The notes beneath the pieces were generated by a model. It saw only the letters and a program-made list of their open reading frames with translations, did no database searches and was not told the DNA's origin. A stretch of 64,000 nt of DNA. Origin: Eledone cirrhosa. Taxonomy: Eukaryota. Made by a program: the position numbers and the translations under genes. Location: positions 1 through 64,000 of the forward strand of contig CAXHJY010000838.1 in the NCBI GenBank assembly GCA_964016885.1, given 5' to 3'. Every line of letters begins with the position of its first letter. Within the stretch, counting starts at the first letter, position 1. This document shows, piece after piece, positions 4,506 through 58,399 of this stretch.

Positions 4506-4647
4506 TGATATTCCCCCTCCATACACATGCATGTATCTGTGTGTATATCATGACTCATACACATTATTCTATGTACTATACATGCACCTTTCATGACTTG
4601 TGTTGCACCTGAGCATTGTACACAATAATTTCATTATTATTTATATA

Positions 4648-4748
4648 CAGGGTGTCCCAAAAACATGTATACACACTTTGATTAGCTGTACAGACAATAT
4701 TTATTAGAATGCTGTTGAAGTGTGTATACATTTTTGGGGGACATCCTG
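4648..4748. mobile_element. Tc1/mariner-type MITE (~100 bp); relatives at 20447-20537 and ~34795-34862
   Basis: TA-CAGGGTGTCCCAAAAACATGTATACACACTT ... AAGTGTGTATACATTTTTGGGGGACATCCTG terminal inverted repeats in a TA context. Confidence 0.75.
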
Positions 4749-4749
4749 T

Positions 4750-4782
<33 letters not shown>

Positions 4783-6119: not shown

Positions 6120-6598
6120 TAGGTGTGTTAAAATGTGGAGTGATGGCACACACATATACATATATATATATATATATTATATATATATACATATACACAT
6201 ACACACGCATAGGTGTGTTAAAATGTAGAGTGATGACACACATACATATATATATACACACATACATATACACACGCTTAGGTGTGTAACAAAATGTGGA
6301 GTGGTGGCACACACACTCACACACATACAAACACACACACACACAAACATACATACATTCATACACGTGTAAAACAAGTAGAGTGGGGGCACATACAGAC
6401 ACATATATACACACACACACACATATATATACACAGAGACACATACACATGTATATATACACACATACATACATACACATATATATACACACATACATAC
6501 ACAGGCGTGTAAAAAGGTGGAGTTGTAGTGCACAAACACACATACATCCCCCCACATACACACAGAGATACATATATCCCCCCCACATACACACACAA

Positions 6599-6631
<33 letters not shown>

Positions 6632-6690
6632 GATACACATTTACATACATCCCCCCACATACACACACACAAATATATATATATTGGCAA
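6120..6690. repeat. Compound TA/CA microsatellite with a recurring AGGTGTGTTAAAATGTGGAGTGATGGCAC-like spacer
   Basis: Spacer recurs at ~6121, 6211, 6280, 6365 and 6503. Confidence 0.8.
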
Positions 6691-6924
6691 GCTATTTAGA
6701 ACACTGGTTTAACTGCTTTACTTCCCTCCGAAGAAGAGATATTATCTAAAAAATTAAGGACATTTAAATAAATCTAAGGTAAAAGACTAATTGTCAACAA
6801 TATCTTTTGCATTTGCATTCTTTATTCTATGTCCATACCTGCATTGTTTTGGTTTTATTATACATATACAAACGTTTATACCTCATTACATAATGCTTCA
6901 AGTGAACTATAACCTCCTCCTTTC

Positions 6925-6955
<31 letters not shown>

Positions 6956-7300
6956 CACACACACACACACACAGAAGCATATATACAGACATATGTTTTT
7001 GTTTATTTGAATTGTAACATCCAATGAAGGATCAAAGCCAAGTGAGAAATCAATGAATGATACTTCTATTGGAGTTAAAAATCGTCCTGTATCTCATCTG
7101 TATTTTGTCTAATCAATAAATATCACATTTGTTTTCAATGTGAAAAAGAAGAATAGGTCATGAGCAGAGAAAGTATTAAAAGAACTGAAATATTCAGTAG
7201 GAAAGCCCCACTAACAACTATGTATGTATATATATATATATATATATCATCATTATTTTATATCACCTTTCCCTTGCTTGAGAGGGAGAGAGACACGCAC

Positions 7301-7350
<50 letters not shown>

Positions 7351-7351
<1 letters not shown>

Positions 7352-7720
7352 ATGATATTAAATAAATGTAAACTATATTTATAAAACCATATTTATTTTA
7401 TTATATATATTTCAAGGGTACCAAGACAACATTGGTATGCTTTCATCAGATAAAATACATTTCCAACCGATAAGGTATGATTTTCTTGGGTATGTCTCTA
7501 TTTATAAAACAAACTTTGTATTTTATCTGATGAAAGCATACCAATGTTGTCTTGGTACCCTTGAAATATATATAATAAAATAAATATGGTTTTATAAATA
7601 TAGTTTCCATTTATTTAATATCATTGAATATTTACTCCAGTAATTTGTTGAGTGCTCTAAATCAGTAATAAACATTTATGTTTGTCGGACTTCCAACAAA
7701 TTAAATACCACTTCTACTTA
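7351..7720 (+). mobile_element. Fold-back element A (Penelope-like pseudo-LTR remnant): 109-bp inverted arms plus ~95-bp 3' tail
   Basis: Arms 7351-7459 and 7517-7625 are near-perfect reverse complements; flanked by TA/CA tracts; each arm carries a hammerhead motif. Confidence 0.7.
7519..7582 (+). ncRNA. Minimal type I hammerhead ribozyme motif (identical copy on the minus strand at ~7394-7457)
   Basis: Stem I TATTTTAT/ATAAAATA; core CTGATGA 7527-7533; stem II AAG-ca-TACCA/TGGTA-cc-CTT; GAAA 7563-7566; palindromic stem III A-TATATA-T; AUA cleavage triplet ending at 7574. Confidence 0.8.
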
Positions 7721-7728
7721 TATATATA

Positions 7729-8045
7729 TAGTTATGTAATAAACAACATAAGATAATTATTTCATTTACCAGTGGTTTCTTGAAAGCAACCAAAATTGCT
7801 TTCATTCATCAGAATCAAAATATCCTGGTGTCTTTATTGACAGTGGATTTGAAAAATGGTTTCTCAAATCCACTGTCAATAAAGACACCAGGATTTTTTC
7901 ATTCTGATGAATGAAAGTACTTTTGGTTGCTTTCAAGAAACCACTGGTAAATGAAATAATTATCTTATGTTGTTTATTACATAACTAATAAGCTCTGTAA
8001 TTTACATAGAGCACTCTTTTTTCCTGGACCTTTCCGACTTTATTC
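7729..8045 (+). mobile_element. Fold-back element B (Penelope-like pseudo-LTR remnant): ~128-bp inverted arms plus tail
   Basis: 7729-~7856 and ~7861-7987 are reverse complements with a few mismatches; unique tail to ~8045; TA flanks. Confidence 0.7.
7897..7956 (+). ncRNA. Minimal type I hammerhead ribozyme motif (slightly decayed mirror copy on the minus strand at ~7760-7820)
   Basis: Stem I TTTCATT/AATGAAA; CTGATGA 7904-7910; stem II TGAAAG../..CTTTCA with an A-A mismatch at the base; GAAA 7937-7940; stem III ACCA-c-TGGT; GUA triplet ending at 7949. Confidence 0.72.
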
Positions 8046-8167
8046 ATACATATATATGTATATAGGAAAGAAAAATACATATATTACATATTATACCATT
8101 ATAACATTAGCATATATAAATATATATTGTCAAACACACCATATATATATATATATATATATATATT

Positions 8168-8990
8168 CCGTTCTTTACTTTTACTTCGCACGATCTTTCA
8201 TGTAGCGTGTATAAGACTTTTTGTTTCGTGGCGGTACCCTTAGAGTTAGCACTAGTATTTTTTTGCGGGACCCTAAATTATATTCTCGTACTAGTTTACT
8301 TTCTTGCACTGGGTGGTTGCTGGCCCTGTGATTGGGGTAGAAGCCTTTATTATTTCGTGGCAGTCTCTTTAGTATTTTATTCTTCATTATATATATTTTT
8401 TAAAAAATTTATTTATCTATTCTTTTATTCACGTATTTGTTTATTTATTTATTTATTTATGTATTTCTTTAGCCTAGCAATAGCGAGAGACTTAAGTCTT
8501 AGTAACCAGATTTTGCTTTTTTTTTTTTTTCTCTCTCAGTACTGTTTATAGTTTTACTCTTCATTGTTCTACTTACCATTTCGAATTCCTCCCCCTCCCC
8601 CTCCCTAGTATCCATTTGATCTCACGCCCAGCTATAGCCGGTACGACCAACGCATGAATGGGTCTACTCCACCCCCTCTCCCTTTTTCTCCTACCTGCAG
8701 GTTTAGCTACCCCTTCCCCCACCAATTTGCCATCACCGATTTACTACTAACTTGTGATGTGACCAATCCTGGTGATTGTCTCTTTGACCATATATGGAAT
8801 TACCCCTTGATAAGCTCGGCTATTTAAATACCAGAATAAATTTTCATTCAGTCCAGAATTAGGCGTCGAAACGGCTTGAGCCCAGCCGTCGGGGTCTTAC
8901 TTGTTCCTATTACCCACTCTACTACCCTAAGTATTGAGTACTTTGGTGCATTATGGTCCACCTGGTCCCTTACCACATTTCCTTCGTTAT
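8168..8990 (+). mobile_element. Longer remnant of family C (Penelope-like) with a decayed hammerhead at 8802-8895
   Basis: CpG-containing block between TA tracts; ACCCC-TTGATAA...C-GAAA-CGGCT-loop-AGCCG-TC-GGGGT; 3' portion recurs at 16239-16343, 37308-37515 and 45014-45090. Confidence 0.55.
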
Positions 8991-14955: not shown

Positions 14956-15018
14956 TTAACTAGTGAACCATTCTTGTTGTTCAGAGGATGTAATTTAAGA
15001 TGCAGCTACTATCTTTAA

Positions 15019-15239
15019 CCCTTCAGCACTTAAACTGGCCATATCCAGCCAGAATTCTCTCACCTCTTTCTGTTTAAATCAGCTGTAACTGGCCGTTTAT
15101 ACCTACATTAAAGTATTGTTCTCAAAATAAATAACATCAAAATCTCATAGATTTGATATTATGTGAGATAATTATGTAAGATAATGCCTTTACTGTGAAA
15201 ATACAATAGTATATATAGAGTAATGTAAATGCTAAAGGT
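15019..15239 (+). mobile_element. piggyBac-type MITE (~215 bp)
   Basis: TTAA flanks, CCCTTYAGCA..TA terminal inverted repeats; 11 copies in the window. Confidence 0.85.
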
Positions 15240-16238
15240 TTAACAAATTTATCAACCAGATAGAGAGTCCCTTCTTGGCTTATAATTTTAAAGTAAAAAG
15301 GTAAACAGTTGATGACCACATAGTTTTAGGGTTCAATACCACAGTATGACACTTTAAGCATGTGTTTTCTACTGTAATCTTGGGTTGACCAATGCCTTAT
15401 GAGAGGTCTTTGTTAGACTATGTGGAAGATTGTCATGTGTGTGCGTGTCTTTCATCAATTTATATACACCTTGAATATAAACATAGTTGAGAGAAAAGAA
15501 AAACAAAACACACACTCACTCACTGACAATGGTGCTTTACAAAGTTCCTTGCATCAAGCTTGGCACTTCCTTGTCATTTTTCACTGTCAGAAATGTAACA
15601 AGCCAGTGACTGACCTGTTACCAATCTGTAACCAATTATGCTATTGCGCAAAAACTGTGATAGAAAATACAAATAAATTATCCAGAACAAAACTAAATCT
15701 ATGTCAGCATATTAGTGTATTTCTAAATAGTTACATCAACACCTAGAAATGTTCATATTTTCTGTAAGTAAATTTCTTACAGAATGGTTATTTTAGTATA
15801 TGCAACTTTGCTATTTTCATGTATTCAGAAATCCTTCATAAATTTAGAAGTACATTTTAGATAAAACTTTGCATGTTACAGTGTATTCCTAACTATATAC
15901 TGGCATTCCATGGTCAAGTGATTCAGTTATGATGTTTATCAGTGGGGGCAGTGATGCAATCAGCTTTCAATCATAACATTTGAATGCCTGTGTATCTGAG
16001 TTTTGTCAAGTTCAGGAGTTCAGTGTGACATATTTACTGCTCAGGTGTGGTTTTCATGCAGAATGAAGAGCATTACCTAAAGTAATTTAACTGAAGATTG
16101 CTTCTAGTGAGAAACTTCTAGTAGTAATGTTATGTGGAATCTCTCATCCAGAAGTATATATTAATTCAATACAGTATTAAGTACTCTTTCCTTTGTTTCT
16201 AATAGAATATAATATAATACTATATATATATATATATA

Positions 16239-16399: not shown

Positions 16400-16606
16400 T
16401 AAACGTGAAGGCTAAAATCCAAAGAGGGCTCGATAAGGATAAATATATATCAAATATATAAGAACCCTAGAGCAAATATTTATTAAAATAACAGATTAAA
16501 GTTTAAGCAAAGAATCACTGCTTTCACCCTTAACGGGATCTTCTGAAGATCCCGTTAAGGGTGAAAGCAGCAATTCTTTGTTTAAACTTTAATCTGTTAT
16601 TTTAAT
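16400..16606. mobile_element. Fold-back element E: palindrome 16482-16606 centred on a hammerhead-like core
   Basis: ~62-bp arms; CTGAAGA-T-CCC-gttaa-GGG-T-GAAA at 16543-16566; symmetry axis at 16544. Confidence 0.6.
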
Positions 16607-26246: not shown

Positions 26247-26526
26247 ATGTGGAAAGTGATATCAGGCTAAACAATGCAAAATGGATGGTAAGATGAAGGT
26301 AACGAAAAGGTAAGTTACCTGATAATATTTGTTTTGCTTTGTTTTTTGTTGTTGCTGTTGTTTATTTTGTCCTAATATTTTTTGAAGGGAATTTTAAGTC
26401 CCGAAATATTAGAACGGAAGAAACAACAGCTACAACAAAAAACAAAGATTACCAGGTAACTTATTTTTACATTACCTTCATCTTACCATCCAGTTTACAT
26501 TATTTAGCCTTATATCATTTCCACAT
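26247..26526. mobile_element. Decayed fold-back element G (~130-bp arms)
   Basis: ATGTGGAAA..GGATGGTAAGATGAAGGTAA..AAGTTACCTG inverted against CAGGTAACTT..TTACCTTCATCTTACCATCC..TTTCCACAT; centre GGGA-loop-TCCC-GAAA-TAT-TA. Confidence 0.65.
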
Positions 26527-28793: not shown

Positions 28794-28828
28794 GAGTGAG
28801 AGAGAGAGAGAGATTTATATTTATTTAT

Positions 28829-28999
28829 ATATTGACATCTACTGCACTCTACAAGGACAGATTATAAGATTTCTTTATATATATATATATATACACACAC
28901 ATATATACATACATAAAATGGTGATGATGATGATATATATATATATATAAAGAAATCTAATAATCTTCTGTCCTTGTAAAGTGTAGTAGATGTCAATAT
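28829..28999. repeat. ~60-bp inverted repeat enclosing microsatellite
   Basis: ATATTGACATCTACTGCACTCTACAAGGACAGA..AGATTTCTTTAT vs ATAAAGAAATCT..TCTGTCCTTGTAAAGTGTAGTAGATGTCAATAT. Confidence 0.8.
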
Positions 29000-29049
29000 A
29001 AGACATATCAACAAATACAGATAGTTACAATAGTGATGATTATAAATAG

Positions 29050-37307: not shown

Positions 37308-37515
37308 TATAAAACAAAGAAAGTGTGGTAAGAAACCAGGTGGACTATAAATAACGCATCCACCAGAGTACACGATACTTAGGGTAGTAGAGTGGGTAAT
37401 AGGAAAAGAGTCAGGACCCCGACGGCTGAGCTCCAGCCGTTTCAGCAGCTAGGCGTTCGGATCTAGCTATCGAAACAGCCAGAGCTCAGCCGTCGGGGTC
37501 CTGACTATTTTCCTA
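37308..37515. mobile_element. Family C inverted pair: two half-hammerheads pointing outward, plus tail
   Basis: 37400-37452 inverted against 37463-37514; GAAAC..GAGCTCAGCCGTCGGGGTCC on both strands. Confidence 0.75.
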
Positions 37516-38307
37516 TATATATATATACACACACACTATCTGAATACAACATATTGGATGGTTACAGCTCAGGGTTAACCAACAACAACTGTTTTCCTTT
37601 ATATTGTGGTACATACAAGACAATAATAATAATGTGTCCAAAAGTACAATAAAGGTCTTATGTCAAAAATTGAATTGGTCTACCAACTTAATGGCATAGA
37701 GCCACTTCTGGTTTATAAGATAAAAATAAAATTATAACTTAATGCTGTAAATAAGTTAGAAAGAATATGCTACATATTTGAAAAAAATGAATAAAAGGCA
37801 CTGAAAATGAAAAACAAATAAGAGAATTCATAAGATAATTGGCTAAAAAATGGAGATGTAAACAAACAGTTAAAGAAGTTGAAGAATAACTGGAAGGCAG
37901 AATCAGAGAAGAAAGAGTGGAAGAAACTAAGATGAAAGAGAGAAAATTACATAAACAAAGGAAAAAGGAATTGTTTTAGTGTAAAGACAACTTCAAAACA
38001 GTTAGAGCTTCTAAGTTCATATTAATGGGAAAACAACTTCAAATGATTTAAAAATAAGTTTCGGCTAAATTTCTTTTTTTATTAAAGTTATTAAGTTTAA
38101 GCAAGATGACTACAATGAGAAAAATACTGCAAGACTTGCCAAGGCCATCTGCTTAGGAGGCAGGCAGGTAATGCCAATATCTAAATTAGAGAGCTTTGGA
38201 TAATACAGAGAAATGAAGATTAAACAGAAGTTTGCTACATATTGAACAAAATCATTGAGATATTTGATATCCCTGTCTTTATATTCACACACACATAAAC
38301 ACATTAA

Positions 38308-39925: not shown

Positions 39926-41331
39926 TGTAACAAATAACCAAACTGAGCCTAAAGCATTCCGGCTGTAATTTCATTGGACAAGTCATGCTACTGATGTTCT
40001 ACTAATAGCTGGCTTGTAAGAAGTGATATGAAAATATATTTAAGAACTGACATAAAGGGAGGAAAAAAACCAAACTCCAAACTTTTAAGTATAACAGCAA
40101 AGACCTGTATGAATAAGAAAATGTCCTATAATATCTCCTTCATTCTCGCCCTCTCTTTTGCTCTCATTTGGAATGCAAAAACTATTTGTCTGTCACATAT
40201 TGAAGTAGGATGATTAGGTTTATTAAAGTGACCAATATGGGTCATAGTGAGAATTAAAAAAAAAAAAAAAGAGTTCCACTCTTAAACAGTAGTTTGTTCT
40301 CTTTGTTAGTCTATCTTGCTACAAAATAAATAGATTGAGGTCCCTATAAATAGACTGGAATCCCTATAAATAGATTTAAAACGGCCTTTTTAGATATTAT
40401 TTAATAACACATTTTATGCGTGAATAAGAGTGAATTATAGAGAGAGAGTGAGGGATGGCGAGATAAGAGAAAGAAAGTGAGCAAAAGAGGGTGAGGAATG
40501 GAGAGATAAGAGAAAGAAAGTGAACAGAAGAAAAAGGAATCCATTCTGTGCTGGCTGAAGTATATTGATTAGTATTTTTCTTTCTGCAAGGTGTAAGGAT
40601 ATTTGTTGGGGAGGTGGATAGACAATTGAATCAACTCAATGTATTTTTGTACATATTTTATTGTATCAGAGTGGCTTCCAAGGTTTGAAAGAAGTCCTAC
40701 TAATAGATGGATTCTGGTTGGAATACAAAAGCATTCTAAACAGTATATGTATAAAACTATAAAATATAAAAAAGACTGTCAATATGACTGATTGGTAAAC
40801 ATTCATAGCCAACATTAAATTACTGGCTCACTAATCTACTGTATCCTCTCCTTGTGTTGTCTGTTGCTACTACAATGTTTTCTGGCCCAATGAACTAACA
40901 AACTGTTTACAGCTTCTCTCAAAGTCACACAATACACTCACATGCCAAATACTCTCTAGAAGCCATACAGTTATCTCTAACTCCACTCTCCTGTACTAGC
41001 ACTTTCCTAAAGCTCATGCAATACACCTGTCTGTCACCATCAACCTTGCAGATCCCTGTACAAAACACTTTTCCCAAACTCCCATTTTATACCTGTAGCA
41101 TCATAGATCTCTCTTCTTGCCCACATTTTTCCTCCATACATCAATATCAGCTTTACCAAAGATAAGTAATATATATATATATTGTTATACTTGGGGAGGG
41201 TCATATTGTTGTAATAATATTGCAAGAAATAATAACAGAACACACTCACTGTTTGGTTGGTTTTCGCTTCTGTATCTTATATATCTCCACAGTTAATTCA
41301 TTTGGTCCTCAATGTTTATCATTGACTGACC

Positions 41332-43646
41332 CGGGGGGAGCAGGGTACACGGGGGGAGCAGGGTACATTACATAGAGACCAAGAGGGAAGCTAGGCGACA
41401 AGTATACTTAGCTAGGAGGGAAGCAGAGGATAGAAAATTCAAGCATGTTTTACAACGTGAGGACCAGAAACAGGAGGTATTCAAGATTGCGAGGCAGTGT
41501 GTCAGAGATAGTTGTGATGTCATTGGAGAGAAGTGTATCCGGAATGATAAAGGTGAGCTTGCCCTCACAAGTGCTGAGAAGAAAGATGCATGGAAGAGTC
41601 ATTATGATAGATTACTAAATGAGGAGAATGCATGGGAAGAAGAGACCCTACCCCACGTAGACCCTATAGAGGGACCAGCAGTACAAGTCAGCGGCAGCGT
41701 AGTAAGTAAGGCAATCAGAGATATGAAGATAGGGAAGGCAACCGGTCCTTCGGGTATAGCTGCCGAGATGCTGAAGGCATCTGGGTCTGTAGGTCACACT
41801 ATAACCACACGTATTGTTAACCAGGTAATACTAGAGGGGGCCATACCAAAAGATTGGTGCAGTAGCATCATTGTCAACTGCTACAAAGGTAAAGGCGATG
41901 CACTAGATAGAGGAAACTATAGAGGTATAAAGTTGATGGACCAGGTCATGAAAGTAACAGAAAGAGTTATAGCACAGCTGATTAGGGACCGGGTGAATAT
42001 AGACGAGATGCAATTTGGGTTTGTACCAGGGAAAGGCACCACTGATGCGCTCTTCCTTGTGAGGCAATTACAGGAAAAGTACCTAGCTAAAAGTAAGCCA
42101 CTCTACTTGGCATTTGTCGACCTTGAGAAAGCCTTTGACAGAGTTCCACGTGCAGTAATCTGGTGGGCTCTTAGAAAACTAGGAGTAGATGAATGGCTTG
42201 TGAAAGCGGTACAAGCCATGTATAGGGGAGCAGTCAGCAAAGTTAGGATTGGCAATGAGTATAGCGAGGAATTTAGCGTACAGGTTGGGGTCCACCAGGG
42301 CTCTGTTCTTAGCCCTCTCCTGTTCATCATAGTCCTGCAGGCAATAACGGAGGAGTTTAAGACCGGATGCCCATGGGAACTCCTGTATGCTGATGACCTC
42401 GCACTCATAGCTGAATCTATGGTAGAACTAGAGAATAAATTCCAAACCTGGAAGCAGGGACTAGAGAGAAAGGGCCTCAAAGTCAACATGACAAAGACTA
42501 AGGTCCTTATAAGTAGACGAGAAAACAGAACCCAGATCCCCTCAGGGAAATGGCCTTGCTCAGTATGTAGGAAAGGTGTAGGTAGGAACTCCATTCTTTG
42601 CCCCAAATGCAAACAATGGGTACACAAGAGATGTAGCGGGATCTCAGGAAGCTTAATTAAGAATGTAGGATTCACATGCAGCAGCTGTGCTGAAACAGCA
42701 AGCAAACAGCCACAGGAAACAAGTACCACCAATCTCTGGGAGGGCCCTGTAGAAACAGTAGACAGCTTCTGCTACCTAGGTGACCGAATTAGCAACGGAG
42801 GTGGGTGCTCAGAAAGTACAATAACTAGGGTAAGAACGGGATGGAAGAAGTTTAGGGAACTACTACCACTGCTAGCTGCAAAAGGCTTCTCCCTCAGAAT
42901 GAAAGGCAGACTGTATGATGCGTGTATCCGAACAGCGATGTTGCATGGTAGTGAGACCTGGGCGCTGAAGGTGGAAGACTTACGTAGATTAGAGAGAAAC
43001 GAAGCCTGCATGCTCCGATGGATGTGTAACAGTAATATACGTGAACGACAAAGCATAAATGAATTGAGAGAGAGACTGAGCATAAGAGGAATCAAATGCT
43101 GCGTGCAGGAGAGGCGGTTACGCTGGTATGGACATGTGATGCGTATGAAGGATGACAGCTGCATAAAAAGGTGCAGAGCACTAGAAGTTGATGGAAACCG
43201 CGGAGTGGGGAGACCCAAGATGACTTGGGATGAAGTGATAAAAGCCGACCTTACCCAACTACACCTCTCAAAGTCAATGACACACGACCGTGACTTCTGG
43301 CGTCACGCAGTAATACAGGGTACCCGACCTCCCATGGGTACATGCTGAAGCATATAAACAATATGCCCCCCCCCCCCCACCGCAAGGTGGTCGTGGAGGT
43401 GCCACGGCAAAAAAGCACCCAGCCCACACTGTAAAGTGGACGTGTAGGCGCCACGAAAAAGCACCCAGCACTCACTGTAAATGAGGTTGGTGTTAGGAAG
43501 GGCATCCAGCTGTAGAAATCAAGCCAGATCAGTTCCTGTATGAGCAAGGCATGGTCAGCCGACCAGACACTGCCCACAACAGGACAACCCGTCTAACCCA
43601 TGCTAGCGTGGAAGAACGGACGTGAAACGGTGATGATGATGATGAT
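41332..43646 (+). mobile_element. Young 5'-truncated RTE-clade LINE
   Basis: Uninterrupted frame, 3' UTR and (GAT)n tail; lacks the APE endonuclease. Confidence 0.95.
41351..43348 (+). CDS. LINE reverse transcriptase ORF (5'-truncated; open upstream of the Met at 41723)
   Basis: Motifs KATGPSG, NYRGIKL, QFGF, FVDLEKAFD, GVHQGSVLSPLLF, YADD, FCYLG, RRLRWYGHVMRM, GRPKMTW. Confidence 0.93.
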   Translation, partial: GGSRVHYIETKREARRQVYLARREAEDRKFKHVLQREDQKQEVFKIARQCVRDSCDVIGEKCIRNDKGELALTSAEKKDAWKSHYDRLLNEENAWEEETLPHVDPIEGPAVQVSGSVVSKAIRDMKIGKATGPSGIAAEMLKASGSVGHTITTRIVNQVILEGAIPKDWCSSIIVNCYKGKGDALDRGNYRGIKLMDQVMKVTERVIAQLIRDRVNIDEMQFGFVPGKGTTDALFLVRQLQEKYLAKSKPLYLAFVDLEKAFDRVPRAVIWWALRKLGVDEWLVKAVQAMYRGAVSKVRIGNEYSEEFSVQVGVHQGSVLSPLLFIIVLQAITEEFKTGCPWELLYADDLALIAESMVELENKFQTWKQGLERKGLKVNMTKTKVLISRRENRTQIPSGKWPCSVCRKGVGRNSILCPKCKQWVHKRCSGISGSLIKNVGFTCSSCAETASKQPQETSTTNLWEGPVETVDSFCYLGDRISNGGGCSESTITRVRTGWKKFRELLPLLAAKGFSLRMKGRLYDACIRTAMLHGSETWALKVEDLRRLERNEACMLRWMCNSNIRERQSINELRERLSIRGIKCCVQERRLRWYGHVMRMKDDSCIKRCRALEVDGNRGVGRPKMTWDEVIKADLTQLHLSKSMTHDRDFWRHAVIQGTRPPMGTC

Positions 43647-44009
43647 ATAAACACATATATATAGTCTAATAAAGTTAAAATAAAAATGGCGTAGACATAC
43701 AATACAACAGGAGGAACATAATAGTACCACTGATGATGTTGCAGATGTGCAACGAAAGAACTTTGTTAGACTATATATATGTGTTTATATCTATATTATA
43801 TCTGTATTTTTGACCATTGGTCAGTCAATGATAAACATTGAGGACCAAATGAATTAACTGTGGAGATATAAAAGATACAGAAGCGAAAACCAACCAAACA
43901 GTGAGTGTGTTCTGTTATTATTTCTGACAATATTATTACAACAATATGACCCTCCCCAAGTATAACAATATTTGTTTCGACACACGATTTCATATCAAAA
44001 ACCTCGCAA

Positions 44010-57176: not shown

Positions 57177-57823
57177 TAAGTTAGATTTCTTTTCAGCCAA
57201 ACTGTTTTGGGGTTGGATTTTTTTTTTTGTCTTAATTATCATCTAAGAATCCTTTCTGTCTGTTAGTCTGTGTACAATCAAGTATAATGAGAATCGAGAC
57301 ATGGTAGACTAATAAAGATCTATAGCAAATATAGGAACTTAGATTGGATAAAAAAACAGTAACGGGTGACTTTTAAACCAGTTATATCTATGTTCTCTCC
57401 TAAAACACCTTTCTTGAAAATAAAACGCAATATGTTTCTCTTTCTAATTCTTCCCTCCTCTCTCTCTCTATATATATATCTATCTATATATATCTTCCCA
57501 TTTCTCTCTTTCTATTTCTTCAGCTCCTCTCTCTCTCCCCTTTCTCACTATCTATGTATCTCTTCCCATCTTCTCTCTCTCTTCCTCAGCAGCTAGGTTT
57601 GAAGAAGCTATACAAGAGGTTGCTCACACCAGCATACTAACACAGATCTGCACCAGAATGCTGAACAGGATATTATGAAAATAGAATAAGGATTTCCAAC
57701 TTTGGTGCACATCAACAAATTAGGTGGGAGACAAGCTATCTTAATCACCTCTACTTATTGAATGTTGTTCATCATATTGAGTATTATAGTAGAAGAGATA
57801 TATGAATGTCACATAATTGCTTT

Positions 57824-57886
57824 ATTGTATAATATATATTTCTGTTACATTGTTATACATGTGACGTCATCAGGTGCTCATACAAT
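57824..57886 (-). ncRNA. Decayed hammerhead-like motif
   Basis: CTGATGA-c-GTcACAT-loop-ATGTaAC-a-GAAA-TATATA-TT-ATACAAT; stem I forms only with a 6-nt bulge. Confidence 0.35.
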
Positions 57887-58399
57887 CATATTTGCAGTTA
57901 AGCAATCATGGGGATATGTCGCTGGTCATGTATTTCCATCCTGCTGTGATGCCAGCAGACACACTCACACACACATATATATACACACACACACACACAA
58001 AAATACATCTATCTTAAACAAGGGTCAGATTTAACTTTAGGGATGATCACGTTAGAGTCCCTTAAGATAAAGGAAACTGTATGCGTATTTTCGCAGAGGC
58101 AAAATTAACTATTACCTCCTAACTGCTGCTTTCACAGACTAAAAGGTCAACAAAAATCCATATATATTTATAATGGAAGAAAGAATATTACCTGCAAAAA
58201 AAGTACAAGTCCAACTCCACAGATTCCTCTTCAGGGAGATTCTTCCTGGTGATGAAGCAATAGTAAAAAAAGTACTGAATAAATACTAAAAATATCTGTT
58301 ATATTTTGATGGAATATATCTATCATAAAATATGTCCTAATACTACAGGAACAATTGGAAACAGAAAAGCAATAAATTAGGGTCTGTATTGGGGGCATT

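Follow-up and report, generated by a model that had tools for sequence, protein, structure and literature searches.

Two neighbouring fold-back elements with hammerhead motifs, likely truncated leftovers of Penelope-like elements

A mirror-image stretch of DNA carrying a hammerhead motif on each strand was confirmed in the 64-kb window, the whole stretch that was analysed. This element (E1) is joined by a neighbour of the same layout (E2), and both are probably 3'-end fragments resulting from the retrotransposition of Penelope-like elements (PLEs), with hammerheads that would be dead at this locus through the predicted pairing of the arms. They are likely ordinary truncated leftovers of such elements, and their membership among the endonuclease-positive PLEs is probable, not proven. 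In its account of the locus the earlier note had recorded E1 and missed E2, which starts ten bases past the end of E1 in the same (TA)n tract (Table 1).

Table 1. Features of the two elements and their immediate surroundings, by position in the window
Feature	Positions	Strand	Details and evidence
(GT)n(TA)n(CA)n microsatellite	7301..7349	.	left flank, likely E1 target; sequence
E1 inverted copy, more 5'-truncated, tail-less	7350..7459	-	hammerhead core 7449–7410; cleavage predicted after 7402
E1 spacer, upstream body of direct copy	7460..7516	+	contigs bridging into right arm
E1 direct copy, part common to inverted arm	7517..7626	+	repeat search
E1 type I hammerhead	7519..7582	+	stem I 7519-26/7575-82 (8 bp), CTGATGA 7527-33, GAAA 7563-66
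E1 tail, one-sided 3' extension, 93 nt	7627..7719	+	contig mapping
(AT)5 between E1 and E2	7720..7729	.	sequence
E2 inverted copy, tail-less	7729..7856	-	hammerhead core 7812-7776
E2 direct copy	7860..7987	+	repeat search
E2 type I hammerhead	7897..7956	+	7-bp stem I, CTGATGA 7904-10, stem II 7911-36, GAAA 7937-40
E2 tail, one-sided 3' extension, ~60 nt	7988..8047	+	depth drop; TA-rich flank beyond

The arms of E1 form an inverted repeat of 110 nt each around a 57-nt spacer and are complementary at 109 of the 110 positions, the sole mismatch being 7369/7607. The 109-bp inverted repeat claimed in the earlier note was thus confirmed, its length being right to within one base. The arms of E2 show 5 differences in 128 and are separated by a centre of 3 nt. 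An order of insertion based on arm divergence (1/110 against 5/128) was rejected, the difference not being significant (p 0.22). All E1 and E2 junctions fall in (TA)n or (CA)n microsatellite, in which a target-site duplication is unreadable.

Parts of the stretch are contained in 12 public sequencing runs from six studies. Contigs of four of the 15 listed runs were mapped to positions 7345–8135 at 80% likeness (X1, 12,154 contigs; X5, 91; X6, 17; X8, 17), the RAD-seq raw-read runs X13–X15 and the runs X2–X4, X7 and X9–X12 lying outside this mapping. Both families are very abundant. Summed depth in X1 was 10^5–10^6 over E1 and E2 as compared to 9–15 in the last two bins of the right flank, a ratio of element to flank of roughly 10^4–10^5, in which depth is not copy number. 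The spacer of E1 is family sequence and not host DNA; contigs run from it into the right arm, from 7459–7492 through 7572–7603, in X1 (four contigs), X6 and X8. The E1 tail also belongs to the family, being contiguous with the element in contigs of X1 and X5, and the right end of 7720 given in the earlier note agrees with the true family end at 7719/7720 obtained from the mapping.

Variable 5' truncation, fixed 3' ends and a microsatellite target were seen in both elements from the depth gradient and the loose ends of contigs. Depth in X1 dropped in the 5' direction, in E1 from 877,207 (7507–7533) through 346,991 (7480–7506) to 64,023 (7453–7479) and in E2 from 203,904 (7885–7911) to 42,435 (7858–7884), although part of this fall may reflect divergence instead of truncation. 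Other copies of E1 end at about 7623–7631 or about 7719–7730 and then continue as (TA)n, with loose contig ends behind 7623 (5 contigs), 7631 (35) and 7730 (138). In E2, loose ends into (TA)n were found before 7719 (74), that is, at the end of the arm, and behind 8038 (58 in X1), and X1 depth at the end of the tail fell from 162,523 (bin 8020–8046) to 543 (bin 8047–8073).

Head-to-head junctions were also sought among joints within X1 contigs. Out of 15 joints listed (26 in all), 11 lead from a place in the left arm to a place in the right arm, all of them at different places, ten at a depth of 8–26 and one at 93. The remaining four comprise one opposite-strand joint, one that returns by 111 nt (from 7988 to 7878, in a single contig) and two skips of another kind. 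Among the 11 head-to-head joints, 6 have copy starts at most 4 nt apart, the other offsets being 14, 15, 16, 19 and 60. The sides of the joints measure 21–33 nt and such joints may arise from repeats; the evidence they provide for head-to-head junctions elsewhere is good but not firm. As ten of the 11 are near single-locus depth and have different centres, the fold-back appears to be made anew at insertion, with no fixed mobile palindrome.

The type I hammerhead that the earlier note claimed for each arm of E1, with an 8-bp stem I, CUGAUGA, GAAA, a palindromic stem III and an AUA site, is borne out by the coordinates. Stem II (7534–7562) was described there as bulged; the interruption is present, in the form of a 2x2 internal loop flanked by 3 and 6 pairs and not of a bulge. 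Stem III occupies 7566–7573 as the palindrome ATATATAT, and the cut on the plus strand is predicted from the motif to fall after 7574, the same position as had been expected. The minus-strand motif of E1 has its CTGATGA from 7449. In E2, stem III is near-palindromic (ACCACTGGT), the site is GUA and cleavage is predicted after 7949, while stem I of the minus-strand motif is disrupted by the letter at 7816, which no X1 contig mapped there carries. Across the palindromic 15.2–16.2 and loop 3, self-complementary positions number 8 of 8 in E1 and 8 of 9 in E2. The pair G10.1–C11.1 and an extra nucleotide between 9 and 10.1 are absent from both; at 10.1–11.1, E1 has A-U, with G making up 30% of the depth in X1, and E2 has A.A, with U-A making up 79%.

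A type I hammerhead descriptor, composed after the sequence had been inspected, was run on both strands of the 64 kb and gave three matches (7527+, 7449− and 7904+); 40 block-wise dinucleotide shuffles gave none. A motif search such as the earlier note had proposed thereby recovered both arms of E1. The core CUGANGA, GAAA, a UH site and the type I stem order are found in all three, while the motif at 7812− fails at stem I. The bare core pattern occurred 12 times against 3.6 expected. The Rfam/Infernal-type search, also proposed there, matched no hammerhead family: no match reached the gathering score in the whole window, and the 68 matches obtained at E ≤ 10 in 7250–8500 were all under that score and included no hammerhead family. 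This null result is weak counter-evidence because known PLE variants required custom descriptors (PMC4209133). When the motif was folded in isolation, the hammerhead was not its minimum-energy fold (z 0.38 and −0.36).

The pattern of variants suggests that both families probably kept a working hammerhead. Among 40 of the 84 variant rows, those listed, all unphased, a single one falls on the 26 core and cleavage positions, and it concerns the free position 7 (7908). Fourteen listed rows concern paired positions, nine of which keep or restore the pair alone, three via a double change, while two (7522 and 7918 T>A) break it. At 7921/7926 this double change replaces U-G by A-U and accounts for three pairing-compatible rows; G-C/A-U at 7538/7558 is also among the compatible changes. 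With 12 of these 14 unphased rows compatible, covariation in the stems may be suspected. The difference in conservation between core and tail was not significant on the few rows listed (Fisher p 0.29; 0.12 without position 7). Relative to the family variants, the copies in the window are the damaged ones at 7538, 7911, 7920 and 7816; at 7538 the window copy of E1 has lost a pair of stem II which is retained in 91% of the family depth.

The behaviour of the ribozymes at the locus was evaluated from nearest-neighbour energies, predicted without tertiary contacts. The monomer hammerhead fold of E1 is placed 5.4 kcal/mol above its ensemble, and the double-hammerhead dimer at −20.2 kcal/mol as compared to −22.1 for the best dimer fold; the corresponding values for E2 are −28.4 and −36.1 kcal/mol. 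A transcript across both arms of E1 is predicted to form a 110-bp hairpin in which the hammerhead would cost 87.7 (+) or 88.8 (−) kcal/mol, and across both arms of E2 the predicted cost is 73.1 kcal/mol. The predicted cost of the plus-strand hammerhead of E1 varied with the start of the transcript, being 17.6 kcal/mol at 7440 and 5.1–5.4 only for starts at 7450–7460. The E1 motifs lie on opposite strands and therefore provide no dimer in cis; a heterodimer of E1 and E2 in cis was ruled out, stems I and III of the 7904 hammerhead being incompatible with E1. The earlier suggestion that the element could cleave transcripts made from either strand hence appears unlikely, since in read-through RNA the hairpin is predicted to sequester the motif, at a cost to the hammerhead of about 88 kcal/mol, and a compatible dimer partner on the same strand is missing. 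Read-through RNA is expected to form a long hairpin, with the ribozymes off.

As judged by alignment, E1 and E2 are unrelated high-copy families lying side by side. Outside the core no homology above that of shuffles was found between them (533/1000 reach the score), and a 10-nt word common to the two tails was equalled in 87 of 1000 shuffles. That two independent families arrived at a common layout within a single (TA)n tract points to an insertion mechanism and not to a selected design. The inverted 5'-truncated copy, the one-sided 3' extension, the (TA)n target and the dimer-type hammerhead all uphold the Penelope-like anatomy put forward in the earlier note. Its fuller proposal, a recent ORF-less Penelope-like or retrozyme-like insertion, is supported as to recency, the missing ORF and this anatomy and falls as regards a retrozyme, as there is no head-to-tail repeat at the locus.

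We infer the following series of steps. A PLE enzyme with RT and GIY-YIG activities would nick the (TA)n target, and cDNA would start at either of two 3' points of the RNA, tailed (~7719 or 8047) or tail-less (~7626 or 7987). Early stopping of the cDNA would give rise to 5' truncation. An inverted second segment would then be made, primed either by fold-back of the new cDNA on itself or from a second nick, and the direct and inverted segments would be joined head to head. In E1, fold-back priming would require a first cDNA extending from 7719 to 7460 that looped back to 7517; twin priming would fit equally. The hammerhead would owe its duplication solely to its position, at most about 100 nt from the 3' end. 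Within the parent RNA it was likely dimeric, acting between tandem pseudo-LTRs via the palindromic stem III, while the fold-back read-through RNA would form a duplex of 110 or 128 bp instead of the hammerhead dimer.

This layout has published counterparts. PLE insertions have been described with an inverted 5'-truncated copy beside the 5' end and a tail of 30–40 bp on one end, and (TA)n targets hide their target-site duplications (PMC8557442). As far as that description goes, E1 and E2 resemble the endonuclease-positive PLEs (Penelope/Poseidon, Neptune, Nematis, Hydra) in the head-to-head inverted 5'-truncated copy, the extension on one end, the microsatellite target without readable duplication, the variable 5' truncation and the hammerhead near the 3' end; unlike PLE insertions, their copies are without an ORF and their tails measure 93 and ~60 nt as opposed to 30–40. 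The same source gives a (TA)n bias for Naiads, a microsatellite bias for Neptune and hammerheads in the pLTRs of canonical clades. Naiads fit E1 and E2 less well because they are without canonical hammerheads. The pLTRs are usually inverted head to head, with palindromes at the junctions for which self-priming was proposed and left unsettled (PMC3846280). The tail is bounded by two RT start sites, and hammerhead cleavage was dispensable for insertion in vitro (PMC11167929).

Dual minimal hammerheads on opposite strands, 100–700 bp apart, have been described in S. mansoni, and the PLEs of rotifer, shrimp, mosquito and Drosophila have hammerheads whose helix III is small and palindromic; among the constructs tested, dimers cleaved at a low level (PMC4209133). 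In the features given there, E1 and E2 are like the palindromic-helix-III group in being of type I with CUGAUGA/GAAA, a long helix II and a helix III of 2–3 bp, in occurring as opposite-strand pairs, as described for S. mansoni, and in being predicted to act only as dimers. They are unlike the PLE minimal hammerheads of that report in their helix I of 7–8 bp as against 4–5 and in being without the G10.1–C11.1 pair or the extra nucleotide after A9; strictly, a 'minimal' hammerhead has no helix III, whereas E1 and E2 do. Animal retrozymes, which are tandem and probably PLE-derived (PMC7229834; bioRxiv 10.64898/2026.07.22.740005), also offer a comparison. E1 and E2 are like the non-LTR retrozymes of animals in being short, AT-rich and non-coding, with a type I hammerhead and probable mobilisation by PLEs. 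Unlike retrozymes as described there, which form head-to-tail arrays that give circular RNAs, their copies are head to head with no sign of a circle. In a squid genome, Penelope elements and 235 hammerhead loci have been annotated (PMC6962438).

A retrozyme origin was weighed on these grounds. E1 and E2 would then come from short tandem non-LTR retrozymes propagated via small circular RNAs, and the locus would be a truncated monomer in which an inversion had occurred by accident. The type I hammerhead, the AT-richness, the missing ORF and a unit of 260–320 nt, within animal retrozyme sizes (PMC7229834), all agree with this, as does the one listed joint that goes back. We consider it unlikely, however, as no head-to-tail copy is present in 6500–8600 or among the window self-search matches listed, as head-to-head joints outnumber the go-back joint by 11 to 1 among the 15 listed, and as two discrete 3' ends lead into (TA)n. 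Since retrozymes have been argued to derive from PLE pseudo-LTRs (bioRxiv 10.64898/2026.07.22.740005), it is in any case close to the PLE reading. The long, near-perfect terminal inverted arms, AT-rich and without an ORF in a TA-rich target, could also be expected if the whole palindrome were the mobile unit, be it MITE-like or a self-copying palindromic element with terminal inverted repeats. That reading is already largely refuted and has a very slight chance of being correct: the centre varies between copies (11 distinct junctions among the joints listed), family sequence extends 93 and 60 nt beyond one arm only, and depth over the element is uneven.

The E1 fold-back might further be a working RNA switch that cuts either strand, for example with a bidirectional promoter in the 57-nt spacer, and a possible bidirectional promoter has been discussed for pLTRs (PMC3846280). 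Both E1 cores are intact, and transcripts starting in the spacer or at most ~10 nt into the left arm are predicted to avoid the hairpin at a cost of 5.1–5.4 (+) or 9.4 (−) kcal/mol. Starts at 7440 or further left would however cost 17.6–87.7 kcal/mol, the free monomer has a stem III of 2 bp, and in the published account no cleavage could be detected for a lone minimal hammerhead from S. mansoni (PMC4209133). The loss of the stem II pair at 7538 in the window copy also stands against a switch, which is very unlikely, and young age accounts for the identity of the arms. Finally, no contig piece covers the whole locus and its flanks are of low complexity, as would be the case for an inversion created by assembly or library preparation, or for a chance motif in AT-rich DNA. 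This is scarcely credible given that the arms differ at 1 (E1) and 5 (E2) places with different neighbours on each side, that similar junctions occur in contigs at a depth of 8–26 and that the shuffles gave no descriptor match.

On the PLE reading the locus would be ordinary, as its layout and ribozyme type are already published for PLEs, and E1 and E2 would be new families of a known kind. The families are apparently unnamed, and they are undescribed in the literature searched, a scope that leaves most subscription journals and repeat databases outside. Exact E1 and E2 patterns had no match in viral, metagenome and prokaryote genome collections, as expected for an animal repeat. A bolder reading, doubtful yet conceivable, is that the two families are non-coding hammerhead parasites of PLE enzymes, present in tens of thousands of copies and inserted by fold-back cDNA priming, with many copies becoming hairpins. 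Fold-back priming is suggested here because of the 6 in 11 listed junctions with closely spaced copy starts. If this were true, perfect hairpins of 100 bp and more would silence the ribozyme by their own structure and supply ADAR editing and Dicer with long double-stranded RNA from across the genome, and an atlas of junctions could settle the origin of PLE head-to-head repeats. The hairpins of the two families could, if transcribed, form a large share of the double-stranded RNA of the host. Their independent inverted junctions, which number in the thousands, could tell apart self-priming and twin priming, a choice left open in the published accounts (PMC3846280, PMC11167929).

Within the elements, putative splice-donor-like words are present at 7474–7495 in the E1 spacer and at 7947–7953, overlapping the E2 cleavage triplet, and a putative acceptor-like word is present at 7631–7640 in the E1 tail. 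Introns can occur in PLE pseudo-LTRs. A bacterial promoter scan of the E1 spacer was set aside as irrelevant for animal DNA.

Protein domains were searched for with Pfam in 16 long frames and in 184 of the 187 filtered frames of at least 45 aa, the other three lying within the 16. No GIY-YIG or PLE ORF was found among these window frames; the only domains were RT and PHD at 41330–43345, two low-complexity tandem-repeat frames having given weak spurious matches. The frame in question (41330–43348, +) has 672 codons with RT (PF00078, E 4.5e-32) and a PHD finger, and its relatives, 55–69% identical, in many cases carry the AP endonuclease domain PF03372. It was rejected as the parent of E1 and E2, AP endonuclease in the relatives being LINE-type.

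Three further hammerhead-like sites were noted in the window. At 16482–16606, the centre of a 125-nt palindrome (94%) falls exactly on a CTGAAGA...GAAA core whose stem II is short; this is probably the remnant of a third fold-back hammerhead, cut off within the core and deprived of stem I. The site at 43730–43757 has the layout of a textbook PLE minimal hammerhead, with CTGATGA, one additional T, a stem II of 6 bp without mismatch, closed by G-C, and GAAA, and no stem I matches it; the core is framed by a 32-nt inverted repeat detected by eye (43645–43676 / 43759–43790). The minus-strand site at 57821–57890 has a hammerhead-like core at 57873–57839. It shares the stem III palindrome ATATATAT with E1 and may have a stem I of 7 bp, displaced by 6 nt. 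It is perhaps a decayed relative; an alignment with E1 was uninformative outside the region from GAAA to stem III.

The window as a whole is animal DNA dense in repeats and rich in microsatellites, and its repeat landscape looks cephalopod-like. Pfam revealed no host exon in it, and a tRNA scan gave no hit. Four more palindromic elements, at 4638–4758, 26247–26526, 28828–29000 and 37399–37516, have no hammerhead core and are likely MITE-like. An array of 44-bp units at ~51166–55426 matches 52 nt of a 230-bp dispersed repeat (15008–15246, one of at least 11 copies that the window contains), and this satellite has apparently grown out of a SINE-like repeat.
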